DNA of 64,000 nucleotides, taken from Ostrea edulis. Its lineage: Eukaryota. This document shows, piece after piece, positions 4,801 through 22,104 of this stretch. How positions within the stretch are numbered: the stretch's first letter is position 1; each line of letters opens with the position of its first letter. A program made the translations under genes and the position numbers. The notes under the pieces were generated by a model. The model made no database searches. It was not told where the DNA came from and saw only the letters and a program-made list of their open reading frames with translations. The stretch is taken from contig NC_079171.1 of assembly GCF_947568905.1 (NCBI RefSeq), positions 66,402,001 to 66,466,000 of the forward strand. Direction: 5' to 3'.

Positions 4801-5536
4801 TCAATTCTTGAATGTAAACAACACTTATAAATAAAAGAAAAGAGAACAATTTAGAGTTAATTTGGGTATGACTAGTCAGTGGATGTTGTATAGTTTCATT
4901 TGGCAATATGAATTAGGTTAAAATTACAAGTATCAAATGGCGGATAATGCAAGCATTCGCTATCATGGAATTCAAATATATTCAATGCTGTTTATTTCTG
5001 TATTGATTTATGATGGTAGTTATTCTTCATTGATAAAGTGCCTTATGTAGAATTAAAACTGGTGAATATGAAATGTGGGGGAGTTTTGATTTCCTTGCAT
5101 GCGATTCTACTTTCAATTAAAAAATAGTACAGGATGCTGCAGATTTGTTTGTTGGCTTAGTTGAGTGTGTTTATGTATTGAGTGTCATTCATTGAGTTGA
5201 CTATGATTTTAAAAGAGGATGTGCAAAATCTGACAGGCAGTGTGTTCAGGATGACAATTGTGTACAATTTGCATACATTGAACATTGGTAATTGGTGTGT
5301 CTGTCTGTGTTTCATGTACTGTTGTAGGCAGCTGTTTTAAATCCTGGGTAAGCTTAACTGTGGTAAATGCATAGAGGAAAAGAACGAACTGTCTAGGAGA
5401 ATATGAAATGATATCAAGAACTTGTTTCTCAATTCTATACAAGAAAATAACAATTTAAGGACTAAACGTTTAGGTTAGTGATGTTAGTAACTTAGACAAT
5501 ATGAAGGGAGAAGTGTATATTTGTTAAGTTCTATAT

Positions 5537-5700
5537 TAGCCCAGCAGATTATGTCTATATATGGAAAAATCTTTCAGTTGGTGATGCAAGCATCAAACTT
5601 GGTACATATATTAACCAAACATAGTTGAATAAATAAAGCACGTTAGCCACCCGAAAAAAACAATATGGCGGCCATTTTTCAAGATGGCGGCGGCCTACAT
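5537..5700 (+). repeat. Left terminal inverted repeat of the Academ-type element
   Basis: Reverse-complement blocks match 8940-9097. Confidence 0.85.
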
Positions 5701-6420
5701 TAAGATATTGCATATTCCTTCCTCTATTGTTTGTTAAAAGTGACATTGTGTTTTTTATTTTCGGAATTCGTGCTTTTTTTTTTGTCTTCCAAACATGATG
5801 AGAGACATTTGTGAATCGTTACGTAATGAAATGCCGGCCATTTTTTTTCAAAATGGCGCCAAAGCATTATGTAAGTGTTCAGTACCCAATAATTTGTTTT
5901 GTGCTATTGTTTTTAATTGAGTAAAACACCGCTTATTCATTATTGAAGGAGTATTTTATACGGTTTTAATCTTCAAGAGATATTTATTTAAAAGAGTGAC
6001 AGTCGAAGCACAACCAGGGCACTCTGCTGACGTCACTGCTGTGTAACTCAGCATGTGGTCCAACATTAGCTTTACTATTAAGTATTCTTTTATAAAGGTA
6101 GTAAATAGTATTAGTAAGATAGCCGCACCTGAATAGACAGGATGTGCCAGCGCAGGAAAGCCAAGCCAAGGGTAATAGGACAATTGTTACCTGAATGGTG
6201 TACATATCTTACGGGTCTTAAACAATGCTGGATGAACGATCGGGCTAGATGTAGGGGTAAATTTACCATGAACCTAGTTGAATCCCATATTTCAATGTGC
6301 TTTGGATAATTTAAGGTGGTAAAAGGATATGCCCTCGGCCTTAAACATTGTCAGTTTCTAGATTATAAAACGTTAGTTGCAATATATACGCTGATACATC
6401 TATGACCTTTTGTTTGAAAA

Positions 6421-8818
6421 ATGGCAAATGTGAGACCATTGTCATCAAACTTGGAGACAGACTGGGGTAAATGTTGTCTCTGTCAGATTGATAAAGATGA
6501 AGATCTTAAATCTCCTTCAACCCGTTACGAAACGGACAGGTAATGATGGGTTCGTTATGATTGCAAGAAATATTCCTATCTTCCATGCGATTCATCAGAT
6601 GCCAATCAAACTAAACCCGAATCGGTTAGATCAAGGTGGTGGAATAGAGGAAACACTAAGGGAAAACAATGCTAAATATCATCAAAGCTGTAGACTTTCA
6701 TTTAGCAATAATAAGCTTGAAAGGGCACGCAAACGATCTGCTACAAATATGTCTGATGATGCCCATAGTGTACCTACAAAAAGTAGACGGAGCTCTCTTG
6801 AAGATAAAGTATGTTTCTTGTGTGAAAAAGATGCTCCAAAATCTTAATTTCGTCATGCTATGACGATGGTAAATATCATCGATTAAATGAATGTGCCAGA
6901 AATTTGAATAACGTTAGATTGATGAACAGATTAAGTGGTGGGGATATAGTTGCTCAAGAACTAAAATATCATCGCTCTTGTCTCACAACCTTTTACAACA
7001 GGGAGAGAGCTCGTTTTGCAAGTCAAAGTAGTGCGGAAAAAATGGCAACAAGAGAGAAGGAGGCCCATCCTATCGTCTTTTCAGTGCTTCTTGTCTACAT
7101 TGTTGAGTCGAAAATAGGTACTGACGGTCCGATGGTTTTTCGCTTGGCTGACCTTGTGAGCCTCTATAATCAAGGTTTGATACAATCGGGAGTAGAAGCG
7201 CCACGTATAAAATCCACGAGACTTAAAGACAAGTTGTAGGAAGAGATCTCTGGACTAGAAGCTCACAAAAAAGGTAGGGATATGTTATTAGCCTACAAGG
7301 AAGACGTCGGCGAAGCATTATCACAGGCGATGGACTATTCGGAGGCACTGATATTAGCGAACGCAGCAAAGATATTGCGTAAACGTATACTGGAACAGAA
7401 AATGCCTTTCAAGGATCTTTCCATGACAGTTGTATTGAAGATTCAATGCCATCTCTTTTTGTACAGTTTGTTTGCATGATTGAGCATGGTGCTGATATAA
7501 AATCTCAGCTAAGATTTGGTGCTTCGAAAACGGACTTAGCAATGGCACAGCTGCTTCAGTACAACTGTTACGCAAAATACAAAGAAGAGTCAAAACCTTT
7601 CAGGCATTCTAAAGACCGTGAGACGCCATTTCCTGTATTTATCGGTATGTCAACTTATTCAAAAACCAGGAAAAAGACATTAGATGAAATGTTTCATGAT
7701 CGCGGTCTTAGCGTCTCTTATGATAGGGTGCTTGAAATATCTGCTCAACTAAGGGATGCAACGGTCTCCAAATTCTATACGGAAGGTGTTGTTTGTCCAT
7801 CAAATCTTAGAAAGAATATTTTCACTACTGCTGCTATGGATAATATTGACCACAATCCATCTTCAACGTCTGCATCAACATCATTTCATGGAACTAGTAT
7901 ATCCATCTTTCAGCATCTAACATCGGATAACAAAGGTGAGGTGCGGGAGAAATTACCAGTAAATTCGAAATCTAAAATGGTTCCAGAACTACCGGACTCA
8001 TTTACCAACATACAATCAGTTTTTTTCTCTGATAAACACCCTAAGCCTTCGAGAGTTGATAGTCCTGTTATAGTTCCAAGTTTACAGCTTCAGCCAGAAT
8101 ATGAATGGTTACAAAAGGTCAGTCTCATTGAATCCGTAAACGAGCATGAAATCAATGTAACATGGTTATCACATTTTGCATCTTAAGGTAGAAGCCCACC
8201 TTTTGAAGTTAGTATAACATCTTTGTTACCATTACTCCGGGACCAAGCACACTCAGTTGCAACAATCAGACATATAATGGATAAAATTAGTGATATTGTT
8301 GCTATTTTGAATCCTGGTCAGGTCCCAGTGATTGCTGCTGATCAGCCTATCTATGCAACAGCCAAATAAATTCAATGACACAGGCCAGAACGTTATGGTG
8401 AAGACAAGTTTATCATGATGTTTGGAGGGTTGCATATTGAGATGTCAGCTTTTAAATCAAACCATTCACTCTTGCAGGATAGTGGTTGGACTGGTGCTCT
8501 TGTAGAGTCTGGGGTAACAACGCCTGGTACAGCTGAATCATTTTTATCTGCTTCCAGTGTTACTCGAACACGCCAAATACACCAGGTAACATCATGCTGT
8601 TTATTTAAACTTATAATAAATGAGGCCTATGAAAATTATACCAGAGGGAAATGAGAGCAGTCTTTCCAAAGATGACTGGGTGAAGAAACGTGAAGCGGAA
8701 AGTCCACAGTTTCAGTTTTGGAATTTGATCCTTTGTATGGAGTTGGCTATATTTTTGCTGATTCGTTCTTTTCGAGAGGCAGACTGTTTGCTTTACCTAC
8801 AGTCTCTGCAAGGAGAGT
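6421..8818 (+). pseudogene. Academ-like DDE transposase pseudogene (frameshifts, stops, C-terminus deleted)
   Basis: ORF pieces 6488, 6904, 7282, 7446, 8415 and 8620 are collinear. Motifs: N-terminal DWGKCCLCQ, KYHQSC, KYHRSC, AAMDNIDH, DQPIYA and MFGGLHIEM (GxxH). About 800 codons, stopping abruptly before the right TIR. Confidence 0.75.
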
Positions 8819-8939
8819 AAGGTGTAATTGTATATAGGATATTTAGTACTGCCTGTTTGTAGTTTTGGTGTCCAGTTGTACGCATTTTTACATCAAATGT
8901 GCGATTTTCAGTTGCACCTTCAGTATTTCCAATTCACGA

Positions 8940-9097
8940 ATACGGTATGGCCGCCATCTTGAAAAATTATGGCCGCGATTTCTAGATATTTGGTGGCTAA
9001 CGTGCTTTTTTGATAAAATAGTATCAAAGGATGTTTCATACCAAATTTCATGCTTGCATCACCTACTGAAAGATTGTTAGGGTTATCTGCTTAGCTA
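8940..9097 (-). repeat. Right terminal inverted repeat of the Academ-type element
   Basis: Reverse-complement blocks match 5537-5700. Confidence 0.85.
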
Positions 9098-10167
9098 TAT
9101 ATATACATAACTTTTCATGCACACCAATAGTTTCTCTTGGACTCAGAACTTCTTTTGTATACATTATGAATAAAATCTACTCTCACAATTTGGCCCACAT
9201 AGTTTCATCAAACCCCTGCAAGAAGACGGGGAAATGAGATATTTGTTATTAGAATGTGCATTGTGTAAAAAATGTTGATATACAGATCAATATATATTAC
9301 AAATAATTGGGATGCTATTATGAAGGTTACCTATTTGTATGAGTTACTAAAAAATAAATCATATATATTTAAGAATATATATGAATTACAGATACATTAA
9401 TATATCAAACTTAAAGATCTCTCAAAAGTGGTAGAATGAAGTTTTATGAAAATTCACCAAAATACAATCCATAATACAAGTTTTATGAATATTCAAATAA
9501 ATGATTATATTAAAACAGAGATTGAAATTTGTCAAAATGAGGAAAATACATAAATCATGTTGGTTTCAGATATTTTGGTGTACTAACATAATTTTTTTTT
9601 TACCTTGACTGAGGTTGAGGCTCAACAAAGGCTTATATTAATATTAATAACGTTTAATATTTGTCTTAGTTGTCAATTTTTTTTCCAGATTTTATCTTTT
9701 TAATTAATTAAAGAATTAGATCTGTAAATTGTGAGGGAAAAGATATTGTCGATATATTTCGACAAAAAATATCTATTATGTATATAATAACATTTATGGC
9801 GAAACTTTTTCCTTATATTATTTATATTAGTTAGTACCGGGTAACCCGTATTGTACCTCTGAACATTAAACCCCGTCGGGAACCCCTATTCAACATTAGC
9901 ACAGTTTGTATCTGAACCAATGAAAACTTGTGTATATATCACGTGTCTACTTCTGTTAGAAAGTTTTGATTGTTTGGACTTGTAGAAAGCGTGTTGAAAT
10001 TTGAGAAATCCAGTAATTTTTATAGTTTCTGCATTGGAGATTTGCACTAAGTGTAAGTGACTTGCAGTTTTGTTTTGTTAACTAGTACATGTTAACATCC
10101 TCGTGGGTTGAATCATTGGTACAGTAACTTTGTGCACTCGTTCAGCAGACGCGTCGCGTCAGTGACG

Positions 10168-10764
10168 ATGGCGGATTAAACGTGCAAGGCGATAGTGATA
10201 GGACATTCATATGTGCGCCGTTTGGATGTTTATTTGCAACGTCACAACATAATGAACTTACGTTTGGACAACGAAAAATTCCAAGTTTCATTACGGGGAA
10301 AGGGAGGTTTATGTCTTAGACATATTCGTTTCAATGCAAAAATTCTGCACTTTGACACAACCCCCGATATATGTTTCATGCAGATCGGTGAAAATGACAT
10401 ATCGCCCCGTAGCGAACCAGGGAAAATCTCAGAGGACATTTTTTCGCAGACTTGTTATCTGCGCGACGGAGTTGGCGTAAAAAAAGTTATCGTTTGCCAG
10501 TTGTTGCGTCGGCTGCCATATGCGTCCTGTCCACGGTTTAACGAGATGGTACAGTCAGTGAACCAATTGCTGAAAGAAAAGTTATCGGACGTACAAGGGA
10601 TTGTGTTTTGGCCACACCGTGGATTCTGGGAGTCACTGTCATACATCTGCCCAGATGGAGTACACCTGCTATGTACTCAAGCCAATGATCAGCCCATGAG
10701 GAAGTTTCTGTGGAGTATAAGCAACGCTATAATTATTAACGCCAAAGATCTCAGGTCAGTATAA
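10168..10764 (+). pseudogene. SGNH/GDSL hydrolase (esterase) ORF
   Basis: Block I IGHSYVRR, block III IGENDI and block V PDGVH are present. The in-frame ATG at 10168 is followed by TAA at 10177; the frame is open from there to 10764. Confidence 0.8.
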
Positions 10765-10874
10765 ACACATCAAAAATTAAATGCAAACTTGAATTATTTT
10801 AGGCCTTGCCTATGTAGGCCATGGTTGTTATTGGTGTTTGAAACACTTTAAAAAAGCATTCTTCAATATCTTCA

Positions 10875-11390
10875 AAGAAACATTGGGTATAATGTTTATT
10901 TAAATAATTACAAAGAAGCAGTCGGTATACTGTTTCATTATTATTAGCAACATTCAGTATAATGTTTACATATTACCAAGAAGCATTCACTATAATGTTT
11001 CATTATTGCAAGAAAACATTCAGTATAATGTTTTCAGAATTACCAAGAAGCATTCAGTATAAGGTTTACATAATTATCAGGAAGCATTCAATATAATGTT
11101 TCATTATTGCAAGGAAACATTCAGTATAATGTTTACATAATTACCAAGAAGCATTTAGTATAATGTTTCATTATTGCAAGGAAACATTCAGTATAATGTT
11201 TACATAATTACCAAGAAGCATTCAGTATAATGTTTGCATAATTACCAGGAAGCATTCAGTATAATGGTTCATTATTGCAAGGAAACATTCAGTATAATGT
11301 TTACATACTTACCCAGACACATTCAGTATAATGTTTACATAATTACCAGGAAGCATTCAGTATAATGTGTCATTATTGCACGGAAACATT
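10875..11390 (+). repeat. Minisatellite of ~15-16 monomers of 32-35 bp with two monomer types
   Basis: The core AAGAAGCATTCAGTATAATGTTT is followed by either CATTATTGC or ACATAATTACC. Confidence 0.95.
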
Positions 11391-11984
11391 TAGAGTGTGG
11401 TTGCAGAGTTATATAGATATAAACTATATATCTGTCTATATTTTAAAGTAGCAGCAGGGCAGAGTGCAAGGCCTGTGCTATAGAGATATATAAAATGCAA
11501 TTTCTATTACACTGAGAGGCATTTTAGTATGATATTCCATTGTTATCAATCAACATGAGTATGATTTAAAATTAGGGAAAGGTTAACGGTATGACGCTAC
11601 TATTACTACATATTTCCCCTGACACCTACTTAAGGTACTATATTTATATTCTTTGATAACTAAAAACAGCCTCCAGATTTGACATTTAGTTTCTTTCTAT
11701 CAAGTTATATTATATTATCTATATATTAGTGTGCCTAGAGATGTTCTTTGGGTTATTGAATTTCTGTCAAATTCAGTTATCATAGCCCTTGTTGCGATGT
11801 ACAAGTCTATTTTATTATACAGGCGAACTGTTTATATCTATACTGGATGTCATGTGGTATACTGTTTGGTGTTTACAGTAGTATTAGTTTGCCAACTGTC
11901 TCACTCATCAAGTTTGTTGGAAGTTGACATGCCCCTTTTTCCTTGATGCCCAGATTTACTGTTGTTAATTATGTTTTAGCAAAC

Positions 11985-13000
11985 ATGCCAAAGGGCAAAG
12001 CCACTTCAAGGAAGCGACCAGCTTCACCCCGGCCCGCTCCAAAGAAGTCCAGTCGTCACAGTGTAGCACCACACAACCCGTCTGTGGAACAAGAGCCTGC
12101 ATAGTTGACACCCACCATAGACTATGAAAAACTGGCGAGACACATCGTCCAGGAGCAAGCACGGGCCCAAAATGCAAACGTTCCCCCAGAACAGACGTCT
12201 CCCAATGCACGGCACCAAATGGATGGGACTTGCTAGGACATACCCACCACTTCCAACCAAGCCATTTCGAGTGACAATGTCACCACCATCCTTGACGCAG
12301 TATTTCAGGGTGAGTCGGCACGCAATCTCACACCCATTACAATCAGTGATAACATACCCTTAGGGGCTACAGTCCCTATGAAAACCAAGTGCAAAATCTG
12401 GTCCAATGAATTTATTGACCTCAGAACACTACTGCCTAATTATACAGATGGTCCCCTTTCAATCACCATACAGGCAGGGAAAATTGATGTAGAGCAGAGC
12501 CAAAAACAAAAGTATCCGCTCTCCATCAACCAGTGGATTGATGCTTTTATAACATTTATGTCCATATACCTTCAGAGATATCCAGCGGAGGCATGCAATC
12601 TCCTAAAGTACTGTGCATACATCAGGGAGATTAACAGATTGCATGTTGACGAGGCATGGCGGGGATATGATGAAACTTTTCGCAAGTTAAGAGAATCCTC
12701 CTTACTTCCATGGCAGCAGCCAGTACCGGAACTGAGGTTGCGGGTTGCTGCCATGGGACCAAAATTCTCAGATAAGTCCCATCCCCCATATGCTAAGAAG
12801 TCTAATTTTCGTCCCCAAAAGGTGTGTTTCGCCTACAACCGGGGTGATAAATGTTCAGTCTTCCCATGTAAATATGTCCATGTGTGTCAGAATGTGGCAA
12901 TAGACATCCCAGAACAAAGTGTTTTGCTAAACCCAAGCCCCAGCCACACCAACCATCCCGTACCTCTTCCAATCCCAGTAAAACCAGCAATACTACGTAA
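11985..13000 (+). pseudogene. gag-like ORF1 of the YR retrotransposon
   Basis: ATG at 11985 (MPKGKATSRKRP) is in frame with ORF 12378, with two internal TAG codons. Motifs PLGATV..KIWSNEFIDL and zinc finger CFAYNRGDKCSVFPCKYVHVC. A 1-nt deletion near 12890 shifts the tail CGNRHPRTKC..., which ends at TAA 12998-13000. Confidence 0.75.
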
Positions 13001-15467
13001 GGAGCTACTAGGTTATGATTCAAATAAATCACAATACTTAGTTGAGGGATTTTGTAGAGGGTTTAGGTTAGGTTGTGTAGGCGCACCCTCGCAGTTGTGT
13101 TAAGTAGGGCCATATAAATATGTCAGGAAAAAAGCGTCAATAAACAGATCAATTTGTGACAAATTCTGTAAACACAGCCCTTTTATACAAAAACAATATG
13201 TATATATCATTAAGTGCATATTGACCTCTTATACATTTTTCACCAGACCGACAGTCTCTACATCAACTCTGTATCACGTGATCAATCATCAAGATAAAAA
13301 CGTATCGTATATGTATAAATCGTTAAATTGGCACGATATCCAGATATCAATGCAAGTTGAAGTTAATATAACTTCAAAGCATATTAATTTCTTAATTTGA
13401 AAAGTGCTGAGAGCAAGTTTATCGTGACTTGTAACATGTCTAATTTTTGTATTGAATATGCAAGATGCAGCGATTTTTAGACATACGAAGTTGAATCTAG
13501 CCTGAAAAACATATTTTCTGTTGAAGCCAGAACTTGGTCCCCTAACTTTCCTCTGGCACTGAAGTTCACATGTCACATAAATCAAACATCTTTCACTTAA
13601 AAACCTCGGGGTGTCGTGCCAATAATGAAATTTTTATGTACGGAAACCCTGTTTATGCAAATGAGTCCATTGTGAAAGTAACTATACGTGTAGATTAGGG
13701 GCGATATCAAGATCACAATATAATATGGATATTACTTTAGCATGTATGCTATATAAAGAAGAAATTGAAACTTTTTCAATATCAAAGAGAATTAATATAA
13801 CCCATTTGACAGAAACTTTTACGCGATTGCAGTTTGCCATTTGACAGAGGTGGTAAATAACGAAACAATATTTTGACATTTCCAACCACAAAAGGACTGT
13901 AGATATGTACGTCATGACCTTCGTCGTGACGTATTTTTCATTGTGACGTCGTGCAATATGCCAGTGCGGTAAAGTATATGTATGTACATCACTGGTATTA
14001 AACAATTTATGGGGAAAGCCTTAACTCAACCGCGCTTGGGATCTTCACCACAGAATCATAAGTCAACTAGGGACCATGTGGAGGTCATTAATGAGTACAT
14101 ATTGAAAGAAATACAAGCACAACGAATAGCAGGCCCCTTTGATGATCCGCCTTGAACAAATTTTGTTACATTACCATTAGGCATTGTTCCCAAATCAGAA
14201 GTAGGTAAATATAGAGTAATTCATGACTTATCATTCCCCGAAGGTCAGTCAGTTAATACATACATTCCTCGTGAAAATTCCAAAGTTCAATATGATACAA
14301 TAGACAAAGTTATTTCACTAGTACAATATTTTGGGCGGGGGGCTTTTATGGCAAAATCTGACATTAAGGATGCTTTCCGCATAGTGCCCATACATCCATC
14401 AGACTATCATCTTCTTGGGTTTACCTGGAAAAGTAAATATTATGACCGCTGCCTCCCCATGGGAGCCAGTAGCTCATGCAAAATATTTGAGGAGTTTAGT
14501 CAGGCTCTGGTTTGGATCATGCTCAACAAATATCATGCATCGGGGATATCCCATATCCTTGATGATTTCTTTTTCATTTCATCCAGTGTCGAAAAATGTC
14601 GGGAGGACTTATCACGGTTCCTTTTTTGTGTAACCAGGTTAATATACCTATCAATATGGCCAAAAATGTTGCCCCTACAACACAGTTAATTATATATGGC
14701 ATGGAAGTTGATTCTCTCGTCATGGAATGTAGGTTGCCCAGGAGAAAATTATAAAAATTAGCAGCAAGCTCAGTGATTTCTGTCATCGGAAGAATGTACA
14801 CCTATGTGAATTACAATCCCTTATAGGCTTGTTAAATTTTGCTTGTACCTGGCACAGGTAGGGCTTTCTTGCGACGCCTTATCGATTTAACTTGTAATAT
14901 TTCAAAACCCTTCCATTTTGTTTATCTCACCAAAGAGGCACGTGCTGACCTAAGTATGTGGTTCCAGTTCATCTCGCACTTCAATGGAAAATCAGTTTCC
15001 CTCCCTTAACAATGGGACTCCTCTGATTACATAAGTCTGTACACGGATGCGTCAGGGTCAATTGGATTTGCGGCAGTGTTGGGATCACACTGGTTTGCGC
15101 AGTCTTGGTCGAAAGAACTTGATCATTTCCAGATTGCAATTAAGGAACTCTTTCCCATTGTCTTGGCTTTAGAAATATGGGGAGGACAACTACAAAATAG
15201 AAGGATTCTTTTTCTAACCGACAACATGTCAATAGTACAAATCATTAACAAACAATCTAGCAAAGACAAAACTATCATGATACTTATCAAGAGGCTTGTG
15301 CTTGCTGGCCTTTACAACAATATTCACTTCAAAGCCAAACATATTAGGGGAAATTGAATGTAATTGCAGACAAGCTATCTCGTTTTCAATTCCAGGCAGC
15401 TCGGCAACTAGCACCGGATCTGGAGGAATGTCAGATACTCATCCCACACTCTCTTCTACACATTTAG
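12960..15467 (+). pseudogene. RT-RNase H (pol) of the YR retrotransposon, split by a MITE
   Basis: GFRLG; RIAGPF; PLGIVPK; YRVIHDLSFP; AKSDIKDAFR; LPMGASSS; HILDDF (catalytic); YTDASG; IAIKELFPIV; TDNMSIV; NVIADKLSR. Several stops and frameshifts. Confidence 0.9.
13090..14034. mobile_element. 945-bp non-autonomous DNA transposon (MITE) with 15-bp TIRs and a 2-bp CT duplication
   Basis: CGCAGTTGTGTTAAG (13090-13104) versus CTTAACTCAACCGCG (14020-14034) match at 13/15 positions. CT lies at 13088-89 and 14035-36. Removal restores the pol reading frame. Confidence 0.8.
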
Positions 15468-16371
15468 CACATGGGGCACGGACACTTTTATCAGCATCCT
15501 TGGCATTATCAACTCAATTAGCGTACCGGCGATCATGGCAACTCTTGCAAACATTTCAAGGTCAGAGAGCTTTACCCTTGCGTGTGGTTGACATATCCAA
15601 CTTTATACCCCACTTGCATGCATCCCATTTTAGTGCAAGTACAGTTTCTTCCCATTTTTCTGCCATAGGCTATGTACACAAGATGCTTGCATTACCGGAC
15701 CCTACACAGCTGTTTATTGTGAAAAAGATACTAAGGGGTTATCACAGGTTGTCTCCCACAGTGGATTCACGCCTGCCAATTGCCAGATATATCTTGCTTC
15801 AGATTATCAAGGCTATACCCCACACCATTTCTGTTTTGGATTATCGTATCATGTTAGAAGCCCTTTTCTCTATTTGTTTTCATGCTTTCCTTAGATTGGT
15901 GAGGTCACAGTAAAACAAGGCATTACATCAGATAAAGTCATTCACCTTCAAGATGTAGAGTTTCAATACAATGGCTCCATTCCCTCCAGAGTGCAATTAG
16001 TATTGCGCTATTTCAAAACCCAAAAAATGAATAAGCCTGTCACAATTTGTGTAGAGGGCTCCCCCACACTGGACCATTGCCCCGTAAAATCATTACACCC
16101 TTATCTGTCGCATTCAGGTCATACATCTGGTCCACTTTTTCAATATAGAGATGGTTCTCCGATTACGTACAATTATGTTTCCAAAGAACTTTCAAACATC
16201 ATTAAGTATGTCAGTCTCAATCCTGCACTATACAAAGGTCACAGTTTTCGCATTGGGGCAGCAACATATGCAGCACAAAAAGGGTACTCGGAGAATTATA
16301 TCCAACAATTAGGTCGCAGGAACTCTAATGCCTTGAAACGCTATATTCGCATACCTACACTTTCTCTTTGA
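15428..16371 (+). pseudogene. Tyrosine recombinase ORF of the retrotransposon
   Basis: N-terminal SAM-like region (SLALSTQLAYRRSW), catalytic R in HAFLR (frameshift just after), HSFRIGAAT and LGRRNS..KRYIR. The usual W appears replaced by R. Confidence 0.9.
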
Positions 16372-16565
16372 TCACTTCACCTCTCCTGAATCAGCCCATT
16401 CGTTGGTGAAGTTCAAATATGCAGGTCCGTGTTTAACTGCTGCATCAAGTTGTTGGCTCATTTCACTCATTGGCTGTACCCGGTTTCTTTCTATACAGGC
16501 CCATTTTTCACCATATATCACTTTTACCAAAAATGCCAGTGTCCTACTACCCAAAAAATGGGGTT

Positions 16566-16795
16566 TACCATGCACGTCAGTGTTTAAGTGTCGCAATTAT
16601 GAGGTCATTATGCAGGTCAGTGTTTAACCGCTGCAACAACGGGGGTTACCATGCAGGTCAGTGTTTAACTGCTGCAACAATGGGGTCACCATGCAGGTCA
16701 GTGTTTAACTGCTGCAACAATGGGGTCACCATGCAGGTCAATGTTTAACTGCTGTAACAACGGGGGCTACCATGCAGGTCAGTGTTTAACTGCTG
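16566..16795 (+). repeat. 40-41-bp minisatellite, ~6 units, 3' of the YR ORF
   Basis: CCATGCAGGTCAGTGTTTAACTGCTGCAACAAYGGGG repeats in tandem. A lone core copy lies at 16419-16447. Confidence 0.95.
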
Positions 16796-17819
16796 TGGAA
16801 AAAAACCCAATCCATTTCCCTTCCCACTTTAAAGTACCTGTTTTAGGCATATTTGCGTGCTGACTCACCAACAGGGTCCAACCGAAATATCCATTAATTA
16901 CCTCCGTTATGGTTGAATTGTAGTTAAGTTTTTCACAACTTATGTATATAAATGTTTGAATTTGTTACACAATTTACAAGACAGCTCACCTTGGATGGCT
17001 CTGAATATGATTTGTTAATCATATCTTTGGCCCTTTTTGTTCGCCATCTTTTTGCTTGTTGTACAATTTGGAACAAGTTTCCAAGGTCTGTATTTTAACT
17101 AGTCATTGTTTGTTATTTGTGATAATCATGTATGGGGAAAATCAGGACAGATGTGTTGAAATCCTATGTAATTACATTGTATGTATCTACTGATTTTCCC
17201 CTGGTTGAACTGGTCAGTACCATATTTATCTGTGAAATTATCTATATGGGAGAAATCAGAAATGATGGGTTTATATATTGTGCAAGATTATGACAGTGTT
17301 TGTGGATCGCTGATGTCCCCCCTTCTTTGTATTAACCTTTATCTTCGTCATGTGTTGTCTAAAATAAATGACATATTTCATTCTCATACACTTTTACAGT
17401 GTTGATTTTTAAAGCAAAAACAAGCTTAGGTGAGCTATCCTCTTGAAAAGGAAATAGTATGAGACATAAATAGATATCATGGTATATTGGGTTTTAACGT
17501 TTGCTGGTTTCTTTATAATTTATTTTGTTTTATTTTGAGGAAAGAAAATGTAGATTTCATTTTTTTTAAACGTAAGATTAAAGCAAATTTAAAGATTTTG
17601 ACTTTTTTCTTTATAATTGCTAGAAAAAGAAAATTGACTTTTCTTTTGAATGTTTGATGAATCCTGTCATATACTTTTTTTGCAAATACTTTAATTTCTG
17701 AACATTATATGCTTCCAGAAAGTATTAAAAAAATCGATACTTTAGTAAATGTACATGTGCATTGATGTATCAAATTGAACCCCTCTGCATCACAAAATAT
17801 CAACGTATTATTACACCCT

Positions 17820-17960
17820 CATTGAGAACCACTGAGCCAATTTCAATCAAACTTGGAACAGTAAAGGTGTTCCTATGAAAGAGACTTTTTAACAGGATGG
17901 GTGTCCTACAAAATCTATCAGAACTACAATTTGTGATATTACTATACAAGCATCCTGAAA
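17820..17960 (+). repeat. Remnant resembling the oyster Helitron-associated (Cg170-like) repeat
   Basis: GAACCACTGAGCCAATTTCAATCAAACTTGG and AAGCATCCTG motifs. Recalled similarity only. Confidence 0.35.
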
Positions 17961-20900
17961 TGTATAGGGGTACAGTAGGAAACTTGTCAAGTTTTTTAAA
18001 AGGAAAAATTAAAGCAAAACATGTGCATGTGTGAAGTAATGGCTTTCAGTAACAATACAGAGGTTTTGAAATGGACAGAAAGCCTACAATGATGCTGAAA
18101 TGTTTTGGAATCCAAGTAATATAGATACACACTGATATCATCCAGAATGAATCAAGCATCCATCAGTTTTTGAGGATTAGTTGCAAAGACATGTAAATGA
18201 TTAAGTATTTTCAACATAATATAGAAGATATACTCAAAATAGATTTCTTATACATATCTATTGTTGGATATTTCCATATGCCAAATCCATTCTCAAGATT
18301 CTATCTACATGGGAATGTAATTTGTTCTTTGCTTCAAGCCTCTTCTTTATATCCCCTTAACATGTGGATAGTTTTAAAAAAATTACTTTGACTGTGGTCA
18401 TTTTTTGACTTCATTCACAAGAATATTTTTCTGAAACATTGAAAAAAGGAAGCATACTATTCTTATGTATTTAAGAATATGTCTTGTTCAGGTGTTATGT
18501 GTACTGATTGTGGGATACAATTGTGCTTAATTAAAGAATTAAGCACATTTGCCGACATGATATACGCTTACAGTTAAAACAAGTTTAGTTTGGAAAAACA
18601 TAATATAACCTATGATATAACCTGCATATGTATACAAGTTTAGAAGTTATTATGATGAAGTAGGATAAAACCATGTTACATCAAACTGAAGAAAAAAGCC
18701 AACCAAAATAATAAATATTATCGTTATATAAAAGATATGTAAATAAAAAAAAACTCTCAAGTTTCGAATCATCCGCAGCTCACAAGTTGGCGAAAAAAAT
18801 AAACGTCTTAACCATATACAATGTATATTTACACCCAGTCACAGTACCTTGAATAAGAGTTTGCTCAAGCATATTTTTTTTTTCCTTAGAAAAGTTTGTC
18901 TTTCATATAGAATTAATGTAGAATGAAAATTTTATTAATTCATAAATCAATTGTCATGGCTATTGCTGACCCAATTTACACTAAATCAGTAAAACGTTCA
19001 ACAGAATAAAGGAGATGCTTCACTAACAGAATATCACTTTCCTATGGACTCTGGAGAAATTGAGATGTACCGATGTATAATTTATTGTCAACAGAGCGTG
19101 GAATCCTTCTCGCCGTGTACGTCCTCATTCTTTCCCTTACCAAAATTGGACCAGATTCATTTTTTCAAGAGGAATATCTCAATTAGTCCACTTTGCTTCT
19201 CTGATATGATTGTTTTGGCACTTAACACTATAATACAATGTAACTTCATTGTTTAATTTCATGAAATGTTGTCAGAAGTCAGGGTTCAACCAGGAACAAA
19301 GCTGGATCAAATTTTAACGTAGTTAGGGTCAATTTCAACTGCAATATTAACTCTAGTTCGTTTTCCTACGTTGATAAACGTTAATTTGAAAAATGAACCA
19401 CACAGTACATGTTTAGGTTTAACGCATTTTGTGTCATTGAACAAAATTGCATGATCATATATTATGTTTCTTCAGTTTTCTTTCTGATTTTTATTTAGCT
19501 GAATCAAACAGATACACGATATACATAATTGCAAAAATTAAAACATAATTTCAATGCAAGCAACAATTCGGTCGCTAACATTTTTAGCACTCTAAACAAA
19601 TAGGGAAAGACACTGATATCTTTTACACACGTTAACACTGTCATAAAGAAGACCTGAATATATGATTTTGAAAGAAAATATTAATGCATCAAATGTCATT
19701 TAAACCTTTAAATTTACTATTGCAATGTGGAAGGCGTGATACATATATTTGCTCATTGATTGATTTTAAGAGGAGTATTTAATCAAACATGTACTCTTTA
19801 TAGATTTTTATTGAAGTATCGGATCTATTTGGGGTGCGTATAAGGCACCTTGTATTTAGATTTTTTTTAAAAATTGCTTCGAAATGTTTAATGTATCATA
19901 TGATGCACGTAGCATCGTTTTTTCTCAGCGCGGGGCGCAACCGGAGGAAATGTCGACTTCACTATAACCTAAAATTCTTGACAAGCAAATACACAAAGCT
20001 TATAATTCATCACGTTATGTCTGATCCTCAAATTCCTTAAAGGGGTTAGAACTAATTAAAGATCTGAGAAGTCACCAAATCTTGATTTCTGAAATCGTGC
20101 GGGAAAATAGCGCTTGTCGTAGAATTCGAAATTCCAAGCAATGCTACTATAAAATACTGTGGATATGTTTTGGAGGGGGATACATAACTACCTTCCCTTG
20201 CATTTGAAAATTGCTAACTTTGTCTGTAAAACTAACGGAAAATGAACATTGTCAAAAAATGGGGGGAGGGGGTCAAACATTTCTCATGACTCTCCTAGTT
20301 CTACGTGACTACATAATTATCTAATAAGAAATGAACAGAATAGATCGTTTTAATACACTGGATATATGCTAAGTTATGATGCGGGTTACTTATGTGGTAC
20401 ATGCCCATAATTATAAACGGTATTTAAAAATTTGAACTGCATGTTCACTACATACGCCAAATATCCTTTTCCTGGGATCTGAACCAGGAATTATGAATCT
20501 AAACGTAAATGGAAGAAAATATGTAGAATAATCAATACATGTATTTTGTTTTAATGACGTTGAAGGGGGGGGGGGGTGTGGGTCGTTGTGGCACGGTCCT
20601 GTAGCCTTAACTGTTAATAATTAGGCAAGGATAATGCATTTCACATGAAGTGTTGACCTTCTGACAGACTGGTGAAGCAAATTATTTCGGTAAAAACTTT
20701 TTTTAAATCATTACCCTCCCCCACAAAATATCTACTAGCCATGGAGTTCCAAATCCCTTCAAAAGTGCGGTCACACGATGCATTTTTTAATATTATCCGA
20801 TTTCCATTAATCTTTCCCATTTTACTTTAATGTTTGAGATTTTTTGTTATTTAACTTTAGCATGAATGTGTCAAGTTTCCGTAAAAGGAATTAAATAATT

Positions 20901-21910
20901 TGAATTATAAAAAGAGAACTCTCTATGCGTCTTAAGGAAGTTTTAAACTCGACAGTTTCAGTCCATTCTAGCTAAAATGTAACTTTTAAAAGACCAATAT
21001 TGAATGAAAAATTAAATCAGTAACTAAGGTGTAATCTTCTCACGATTCGGCGTCTCAACATCTCTCGTATCAAGAATATTTGAATATGTATCGGGCCACC
21101 ATTTTTCCTCTCCTGATCCTATGGAGATGACAAACAGAAAATACAATTACTTCACCCTAATTATCGTACTGTGTTGAAATCGTGTAAGGAGTACGTTTAT
21201 GTTTGAGGGTCTCGTGCATTTTCGAGATACAAATATCTGATATGTCCTAGAATTGTGCGGAAACGGATGGAACCATAGCGTACTTTTTTACATACCAATC
21301 AATGAAACTATTGGGAGCTGTTTCTTGCAAGTCTCCTGAAACAGCTAAACAGACTTAGTAGTACAGATAGATAAACAGACAGTTTGACAGATATATATTT
21401 TATTTTAGTATTTCATATAATTAATTCATAACCTAATAAACATTAAATTCATAACGTAATAGATAATAAATTATGTTTGAAAAGAGTTTTGGAAGGAATA
21501 TATCTGTTTATAAAGAAGTCCCTATACTATCACCACAAATATACATTCTTGTTGCAGATGACGCAATGCAATGATCACCAGGTTTCTGTTCGTCGTTTTG
21601 CACCCACCGCATTTGCCCCTCAAGGTGGAAAACAAAATTGAAAACTAATTGCTCATCTAAAAGGGCACCACCACTCATCTCCCAAAAGATGATTTGGCTT
21701 TTCATAAAATGAAAACCCCAATTGATCCCAGGGTGAAAACGAAAATTTTGAAACTTTATTGCACATTTATATGACACCGCCAATTATCTTCCAAAAGATT
21801 AGTTGGCTAGTAGGTAAAACAGGGAACCAAATGTATGAAATCTGGGAACTAGGTTTTTTTTTTTTTTATAGAAAAACAATTTTTGAACACCATTTTGTTC
21901 CCATTAGTAC

Positions 21911-22104
21911 CTCGTTCGCACGACATAATATCTCGTCTGCACGACTTTTAAATTACCTCGTTCGCACGAGTTAATTATCTCGTTCGCACGACTTATTTTC
22001 TCGTTAGAACGACATATTTTCTCGTTCGCACGACATATTTTCTCGTTCACACGACATATTATGTCGTTTGCACGACATAATATCTCAGGCGAACGACATA
22101 ATTT
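21911..22104 (+). repeat. ~21-bp tandem repeat, ~9 units
   Basis: CTCGTTCGCACGACATA(A/T)TWT repeated. Confidence 0.9.

Follow-up and report, generated by a model that had tools for sequence, protein, structure and literature searches.

We describe a retrotransposon in a 64,000-nucleotide stretch of the Ostrea edulis genome (contig NC_079171.1, positions 66,402,001 to 66,466,000), here called the window, whose numbering is used throughout; the features described lie on the plus strand unless stated otherwise. The element is very probably a dead copy of the Ngaro type. It belongs to a clade with the layout A1-SGNH-gag-pol-YR-B1-A2-B2, where A and B are split direct repeats, SGNH is an esterase gene and YR the tyrosine recombinase; the copy has lost A2 and one B, and members of the clade likely make Gag and YR from spliced messenger RNAs. 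The order SGNH-gag-pol-YR is the norm of the family and not a one-off circular permutation. An initial annotation, made from the sequence alone, had described an SGNH open reading frame (ORF) with GHS, GEND and DGVH blocks, a 1.2-kb spacer and then gag, pol and YR on one strand. Our ORFs and domain matches bore this out, since the locus reads SGNH, spacer of 1.2 kb, gag, reverse transcriptase (RT), RNase H and YR, the last ending at 16371. The annotation was also right that no YR lies upstream and no SGNH downstream at this locus.

Ten close sibling copies were compared with the window on both sides. SGNH stood 5' of gag in all ten and YR was upstream in none. Sibling similarity began at 9759-9768 in nine of the ten and stopped at 17470-17487. 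By this alignment the full element is 9767-17471, and the limits first proposed, 10168-16371, were too narrow. Judged by their flanks, the ten siblings and the window copy represent six insertion sites, two of which were multiplied by segmental duplication. Six of the ten siblings terminated in B1-A2-spacer-B2, with A corresponding to 9767-10016 and B to 17030-17471. The A1 repeat (about 250 bp) thus forms the 5' end of the element at the point where sibling similarity starts, and it is repeated as A2 behind B1 in the six siblings. The complete arrangement A1...B1-A2-B2 was found in these six and in nine divergent loci. The repeats are direct, not inverted; the marks of DIRS-like elements, namely inverted terminal repeats with an internal complementary region and a methyltransferase, are lacking. 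A short A/T-rich core is common to the element ends and the B1|A2 junction, and no target duplication was seen.

In the window copy only A1 and a single B (17030-17471, the 3' end of the element) were present. Each of the two repeats occurs once in the 64 kb, and a repeat search inside the window alone found only minisatellites. The earlier observation that split direct repeats are absent therefore stands for this copy and fails for the family. Three duplicates that share both flanks with the window retain B1-A2-B2. Diagnostic sites in the window B were of B1 type up to 17333 and mostly of B2 type from 17391-17428, with one switch. The split repeats are missing here because A2, a 75-bp spacer and one B were lost, leaving a B1/B2 hybrid, likely by a B1 x B2 crossover after insertion. 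Two side observations concern these regions. The element and both its flanks (5000-22000) belong to a segmental duplication that is found at least four times on the same contig at about 98% identity (duplicates at G000:C8 73.47-73.49, 74.30-74.32 and 68.60-68.62 Mb), and a second insertion (L040, L042, L046) has been triplicated in a similar way. Furthermore, contig depth over A (9767-10016) and B (17030-17471) was several-fold above that of the body in four public runs. Such an excess would fit many solo A-spacer-B elements, as in Cafeteria Ngaro, contig depth being a poor measure.

The same order extends well beyond the close siblings. Our YR and SGNH locus lists comprised the best 150 or so scored candidates each, the YR candidates being merged to 146 loci. 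Among these best-scored 146 YR loci, 67 were preceded by a window-type SGNH on the same strand, no more than 12 kb away; none had one downstream or on the opposite strand with this query, and 79 had none at all. In seven of 20 divergent SGNH-upstream loci, and also in L085 and L088, A1 lay 5' of SGNH and a full B1-A2-B2 block was present. Twenty of the loci scored as having no SGNH were inspected; four were SGNH-first (L084, L085, L086 and L088), and most others had no SGNH in the stretch compared, several being truncated or deleted relatives. L089 carried a different SGNH type directly after YR. Searches with L089 led to a second large group, in which 41 of 41 loci read gag-pol-YR-SGNH where the genes survive, so the SGNH-first and canonical layouts coexist in one genome. 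The SGNH-first elements fell into about 14 families (37-66% identical in pol and 24-57% in SGNH). The comparison of SGNH and pol divergence that the initial annotation had suggested gave congruent results (Spearman rho 0.83 over 91 non-independent family pairs). Wherever SGNH was located within an element of the clade, it stood ahead of gag; the position after YR known from DIRS-53_XT was not encountered in the clade, L160 being read as a permuted contig. Shared outer boundaries at independent sites, together with divergent families that keep this order and have A1 upstream, support the suggestion that this is a lineage with a 5' esterase gene. One long-branch member of the clade, L075 (2867-3023), has A1 directly before gag, a full B1-A2-B2 block and no SGNH; it may be a deletion, a retrocopy in which SGNH was skipped, or an SGNH-less family.

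Phylogenetic analysis agreed with the gene orders. The pol (RT/RNase H) tree had 65 rows, one per family with pol shorter than 380 aa excluded, and was rooted on two elements bearing a methyltransferase (Dam). The SGNH-first clade was recovered at 100/97 and held 34 rows, the order being known for 18 of them (seen, or in the case of L160 inferred). Its sister was the canonical 3'-SGNH clade (100/99), and the two were joined at 100/98, far from the Dam-bearing elements, in a tree without a named reference Ngaro. Unrooted pol, YR and SGNH trees each split the two layouts with approximate likelihood-ratio support (SH-aLRT) of 99-100. The branch between the two SGNH types measured about 1.9 changes per column, compared with about 0.45 for pol, that is, about four times as long. 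What we see is a clade-level rearrangement inside the Ngaro-like superfamily, real and conserved.

The clade is not confined to Ostrea. It holds database pol proteins from Pinctada, Saccostrea, Mizuhopecten, Pecten and Argopecten (the data comprise the proteins and not the gene order around them), and in the Magallana gigas gene models P0033 and P0037 SGNH is N-terminal to gag. The order SGNH-gag-pol-YR was found in L153, L158 and L159 (G001) and SGNH-gag-YR in L157 (G003). These contigs are filed in bacterial genome bins, and we infer that they are host DNA. L160 reads as a permuted contig of the SGNH-first type, and seven G001 contigs carry SGNH directly after YR. Of 22 SGNH loci in metagenome contigs, mostly too short, only L110 had gag downstream, and L097 had a weak pol piece upstream. 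A search of viral contigs for the element gave no match. As side observations, the G001 bin contains about 30 YR contigs and is thus heavily mixed with animal DNA, and L158, L159 and L173 from it read as YR-retrotransposon circles with a doubled repeat block and periods of about 7.0-7.1 kb; they are either true circular intermediates or assembly loops.

How the esterase gene came to the front can be explained in two ways within this interpretation. We give an even chance to the view that an ancestor shifted its own 3' SGNH to the front, through an ancient circle permutation or a tandem dimer with new ends. The 3' hydrolase is likely ancestral because the sister clade and a deeper branch (L174, a partial match) carry SGNH 3' of YR, and a circular intermediate would make such a move easy. 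However, the long branch connecting the SGNH types (about 1.9, against about 0.45 for pol) and the median cross-clade identity, which is 19% for SGNH and 36% for pol, speak against it. Somewhat less probable is the loss of the 3' hydrolase followed by independent capture of a different SGNH into the 5' leader. The deep split between the SGNH types favors capture, and the portion of PMC5408684 available to us reports that LTR, Penelope and non-LTR elements captured esterases independently. Against it, canonical SGNH (L089) is still found by a profile of the 5' type, no outside donor came to light, and the SGNH tree was built without outgroup esterases. Both translocation and capture can be entertained, because SGNH is only 13-25% identical across the two clades and its branch is about four times that of pol.

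The SGNH ORF itself (10168-10764, with an open frame from 10180 to 10764) contains the blocks GHS, G, GEND and DGVH and matched Pfam Lipase_GDSL at E 0.006, under the curated cut-off. The catalytic S, G, N, D and H were invariant across 24 homologues. Its closest named protein, 97% identical, is from Ostrea edulis, and its ESM Atlas neighbors were GDSL clusters, mostly from Mollusca. A profile search over 1.84 billion proteins returned 4260 SGNH matches at E 0.001, given without genomic context; of ten clusters looked up, two carried species names (Ostrea edulis and Mytilus edulis). Only one gene model was returned by a search for longer SGNH fusion proteins. Two further observations were made on this gene. 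Six families encode the C-terminal R-P-V (10752-10761) with the same AGGCCAGT, the window having AGGTCAGT, and these shared codons suggest a nucleotide-level signal such as a splice donor. A deletion variant of SGNH lacking 352 bp (10241-10594) occurred in contigs of all five public runs covering both sides.

Derivative copies gave evidence of an RNA step. When 36 derivative loci were compared with intact relatives, a precise GT-AG deletion running from inside gag to just before YR was found in three families, and the join was confirmed in nine of the ten deletion copies tested. The intron corresponds to 12310-15395 in the window, where its removal would fuse gag codons 1-108 and one further base in frame to YR. 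The join was likewise in frame in L052 and L065; in L044 the frame differs through a frameshift of its own. The same join appeared in contigs of the public runs X1, X4 and X6, whose run type is unrecorded. The spliced copies L195-L198 retain A1, SGNH and B1-A2-B2, and L069 retains SGNH. These copies are best read as retrotransposed spliced RNAs, and YR was likely made as a GagN-YR fusion. Since precise GT-AG deletion copies have complete ends, the element moves through RNA; since they retain SGNH, the esterase travels on the transposing RNA. The splice was not seen in 11 derivative loci of the canonical type, most of which are without the gag-side match needed to show one. A chimeric non-autonomous element was also noticed in several copies (L069 and C1:36.33, C4:73.23, C5:7.37, C5:9.79, C6:34.63 and C9:49.06 Mb). 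It is a spliced L052-family copy with a piece of the window-family SGNH region between its own SGNH and gag, the sequence having been seen for L069 only.

With SGNH as the first ORF, gag must be expressed in some other way. In the window a predicted splice acceptor (…TTTTAG, 11964-11979) lies 5 nt ahead of the gag ATG. Fourteen families were examined, and in all 12 with a located gag ATG a YAG acceptor stood 0-11 nt before it. At least 7 of 12 pyrimidines preceded it in 11 of these 12 families, compared with 1099 of 6622 background ATGs (16.6%) and none of 12 canonical oyster rows. This acceptor in 12 of 12 families indicates that gag is likely expressed from a spliced mRNA. A candidate donor, GTAAGT, is predicted at 10053-10058, 36 nt downstream of A1 and ahead of the SGNH ATG; by eye, no in-frame ATG was found in the window's leader before it. 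Between A1 and SGNH, 40-170 nt upstream of the GHS codon, the hexamer GTRAGY was present in eight of the 14 families, compared with 75 of 1050 control windows (7.1%). The predicted acceptor is well supported, and the donor is provisional. A different joint, from the end of SGNH to the acceptor of gag, is drawn in the gene models P0001, P0006 and P0037, with P0001 continuing from the AG at 11979. Contigs of six public runs, their type unrecorded, contained no leader-to-gag joint and are no evidence either way.

A lesser but real possibility is that gag is reached without skipping SGNH, either from a promoter inside the spacer or through re-initiation following a splice at the SGNH end that leaves SGNH overlapping the gag start. 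The three gene models just named agree with such a splice. In 11 of 12 oyster families the acceptor-to-ATG distance equals 2 mod 3, a hint of translation through this stretch, and no SGNH-skipped copy was found among the 36 derivative loci. However, a donor is enriched upstream of the SGNH ATG (8 of 14 families), the phase is not kept in G001 (1, 7 and 9 nt), and the gene models are computational.

Returning to the interpretation of a spliced, SGNH-first Ngaro-type element, several points weigh against it. As to the repeats, one or two B sites of the window copy disagree with two of the three duplicates, a collapse in the assembly could have produced the B1/B2 hybrid, and 13 of the 20 divergent loci were without A2/B2 inside the 10 kb compared. 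The absence of downstream SGNH among the 146 YR loci is limited by a query that misses the canonical SGNH, L089 itself being among the 79 loci without one. Clade-specific queries supplied the tree rows, among which there is no published Ngaro. Regarding gag expression, the gag ATG was not located in two of the 14 families, an acceptor before gag also occurs in two of three canonical G001 elements, and L156, inside the clade, has none. Furthermore, the donor range was chosen after inspection, six of the 14 families are without the GTRAGY hexamer, and none of the 36 derivative loci compared was an integrated copy with SGNH precisely spliced out.

If the interpretation is right, transcription would start in A1 and run into B2, and the unspliced RNA would make the esterase. 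For the Gag mRNA, the acceptor before gag would be joined to the donor 36 nt after A1 or to one at the SGNH end. The ends would be repaired on the internal B1-A2 junction, and circular DNA would then be integrated by YR at the short A/T-rich core without target duplication, as in the standard model. The source of that model, PMC7192593, reports, in the part of its text available to us, mostly linear cDNA for DIRS-1 and no amplification of the circle junction. We put forward more tentatively a wider scenario, namely an old clade in bivalves, and probably in other marine invertebrates, in which the esterase is the first ORF of the unspliced RNA and intronic, Gag(-Pol) and GagN-YR come only from spliced mRNAs, and one ancient circle permutation gave rise to the order. 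If true, the logic of the retroviral env gene would be inverted, and splicing would set the ratio of esterase, capsid and recombinase.

The initial annotation had offered, as one of its two readings, that a canonical gag-pol-YR-SGNH circle integrated at a non-canonical point between YR and SGNH, burying the terminal junction at 11400-11950. The window copy taken singly has this appearance and the genome also contains canonical elements (41 of 41 loci), but this one-off event is now very improbable and can be regarded as refuted: the order and the outer ends are common to all siblings over six insertion sites, A1 lies upstream of SGNH and B1-A2-B2 after YR, SGNH of the window type has only 13-25% identity to the canonical type, and the missing repeats are explained by the loss of A2 and B2. 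The SGNH-gag spacer matched A or B only by chance words of 10-15 nt, so no terminal junction is buried there. Least credible of all is a chance adjacency of the YR element with a host gene or separate element, as SGNH homologues annotated in databases as stand-alone oyster proteins might suggest, since 67 upstream placements stand against none elsewhere among the best-scored YR loci, SGNH lies inside the A1-bounded element, its divergence tracks that of pol (rho 0.83), and it is retained in retrotransposed spliced copies.

The window copy is dead. Its SGNH has a stop at codon 4 (10177-10179), gag is interrupted by two stops, pol and YR are frameshifted, and pol also holds an insertion of 945 bp. 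The gag-like ORF (11985-12998, its end approximate, ATG at 11985) has a frameshift near 12890; it had no Pfam match and was named from its position and from homology among copies. The pol region (12739-15464), recognized by Pfam RVT_1 and RT_RNaseH and by comparison with the sibling L044, carries frameshifts, stops and the inserted transposon. The YR ORF (15374-16371; Phage_int_SAM_1 and Phage_integrase) has a frameshift near 15890. Pfam matches were weak overall and only RT_RNaseH was above its own cut-off. The gag-like ORF, RT/RNase H and YR follow in that order with overlaps, as in Ngaro-like elements. No Dam methyltransferase was matched in the scanned pol proteins, and the genome's 14 Dam matches all lie away from the locus. 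Minisatellites occupy part of the SGNH-gag spacer (10899-11390, units of 33/34 bp, copy number differing between siblings) and of the 3' untranslated part (16557-16795, 40-bp units). The insert in pol (13090-14034, no strand assigned) is a non-autonomous DNA transposon with imperfect terminal inverted repeats of 15 bp and a CT target duplication; the site is empty in six siblings and filled in the three duplicates of the window locus. Its 2-bp target duplication points to the CACTA/Mirage/Chapaev group as a possible placement. It had very high contig depth in the public runs and is very high-copy. Outside the element, 6434-8654 contains broken plus-strand ORFs, two of which were scanned without a Pfam match, and is bounded by an inverted pair near 5565-5691 and 8950-9078; it looks like a degraded DNA transposon.

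In the accessible text of PMC9210276, the Ngaro hydrolase sits after YR. Ngaro hydrolases are not known to have been described in any other position, and they have no known function. An intact esterase kept at the opposite end through about 14 families indicates that the gene is under selection whatever its position. The two oyster groups offer a natural comparison for esterase function, front versus back and free versus YR-coupled, and the integrated spliced copies are an RNA-free proof of the mode of YR expression in the SGNH-first clade. Many "uncharacterized" or "SGNH hydrolase" gene models of oyster, pearl-oyster and mussel met in this analysis are likely transposon ORFs, and copies with a single B hide the Ngaro signature from a reading of one copy. 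A case with SGNH at the 5' end was not found in the parts available to us of the literature searched, including PMC6681497, PMC7192593, PMC3783388, PMC10294476, PMC9341512, PMC5408684 and PMC2997562, a scope of texts rather than of figures, supplements, Repbase or Dfam. Oyster consensus entries in the latter two may already show the SGNH-first order without comment.

The layout A1-body-B1-A2-B2 is that of Ngaro repeats (PMC9210276 and PMC8547959, as far as their accessible texts go). The closest counterparts are the canonical oyster Ngaros (L089, L113-L152), which are sister in the pol tree and have the same repeats where preserved (L122, L128, L146), whereas their SGNH follows YR directly and no strong acceptor precedes gag in 12 rows examined. 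The Xenopus elements DIRS-53_XT and DIRS-54_XT, as presented in the available text of PMC9210276, likewise have A1-body-B1-A2-B2, gag, RT/RNase H, YR, an extra SGNH ORF and no methyltransferase. However, in these SGNH comes after YR and all ORFs overlap, while in the oyster clade SGNH is first, 1.2-2.7 kb before gag, and of a deeply separate type. Cafeteria Ngaro 1-4 share the arrangement A1-ORFs-B1A2B2, and products of repeat recombination (solo AB) were reported there; they differ in having three ORFs, and the word "hydrolase" is absent from the main text of that paper (PMC8547959). The PAT-like superfamily, defined by split direct repeats plus a methyltransferase in the section of PMC7192593 we could draw on, resembles the window family in the repeats and differs by the methyltransferase, absent here. 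A more distant likeness is the ORF1 esterase of CR1/L2/RTEX elements, which also places an SGNH esterase upstream of RT; that of ZfL2-1 (4C1B) matched the window SGNH weakly in a profile comparison (E 0.01). By the available text of PMC3905857, this esterase has hydrolase activity and binds phospholipids. It is the only functional model; by analogy, the oyster esterase is predicted to have a role connected with lipids or membranes, binding or deacylating lipids during particle assembly or transport. ZfL2-1 belongs to a different retroelement order, and its esterase is part of an ORF1p that replaces Gag, whereas in the oyster clade the esterase is a free ORF besides gag.

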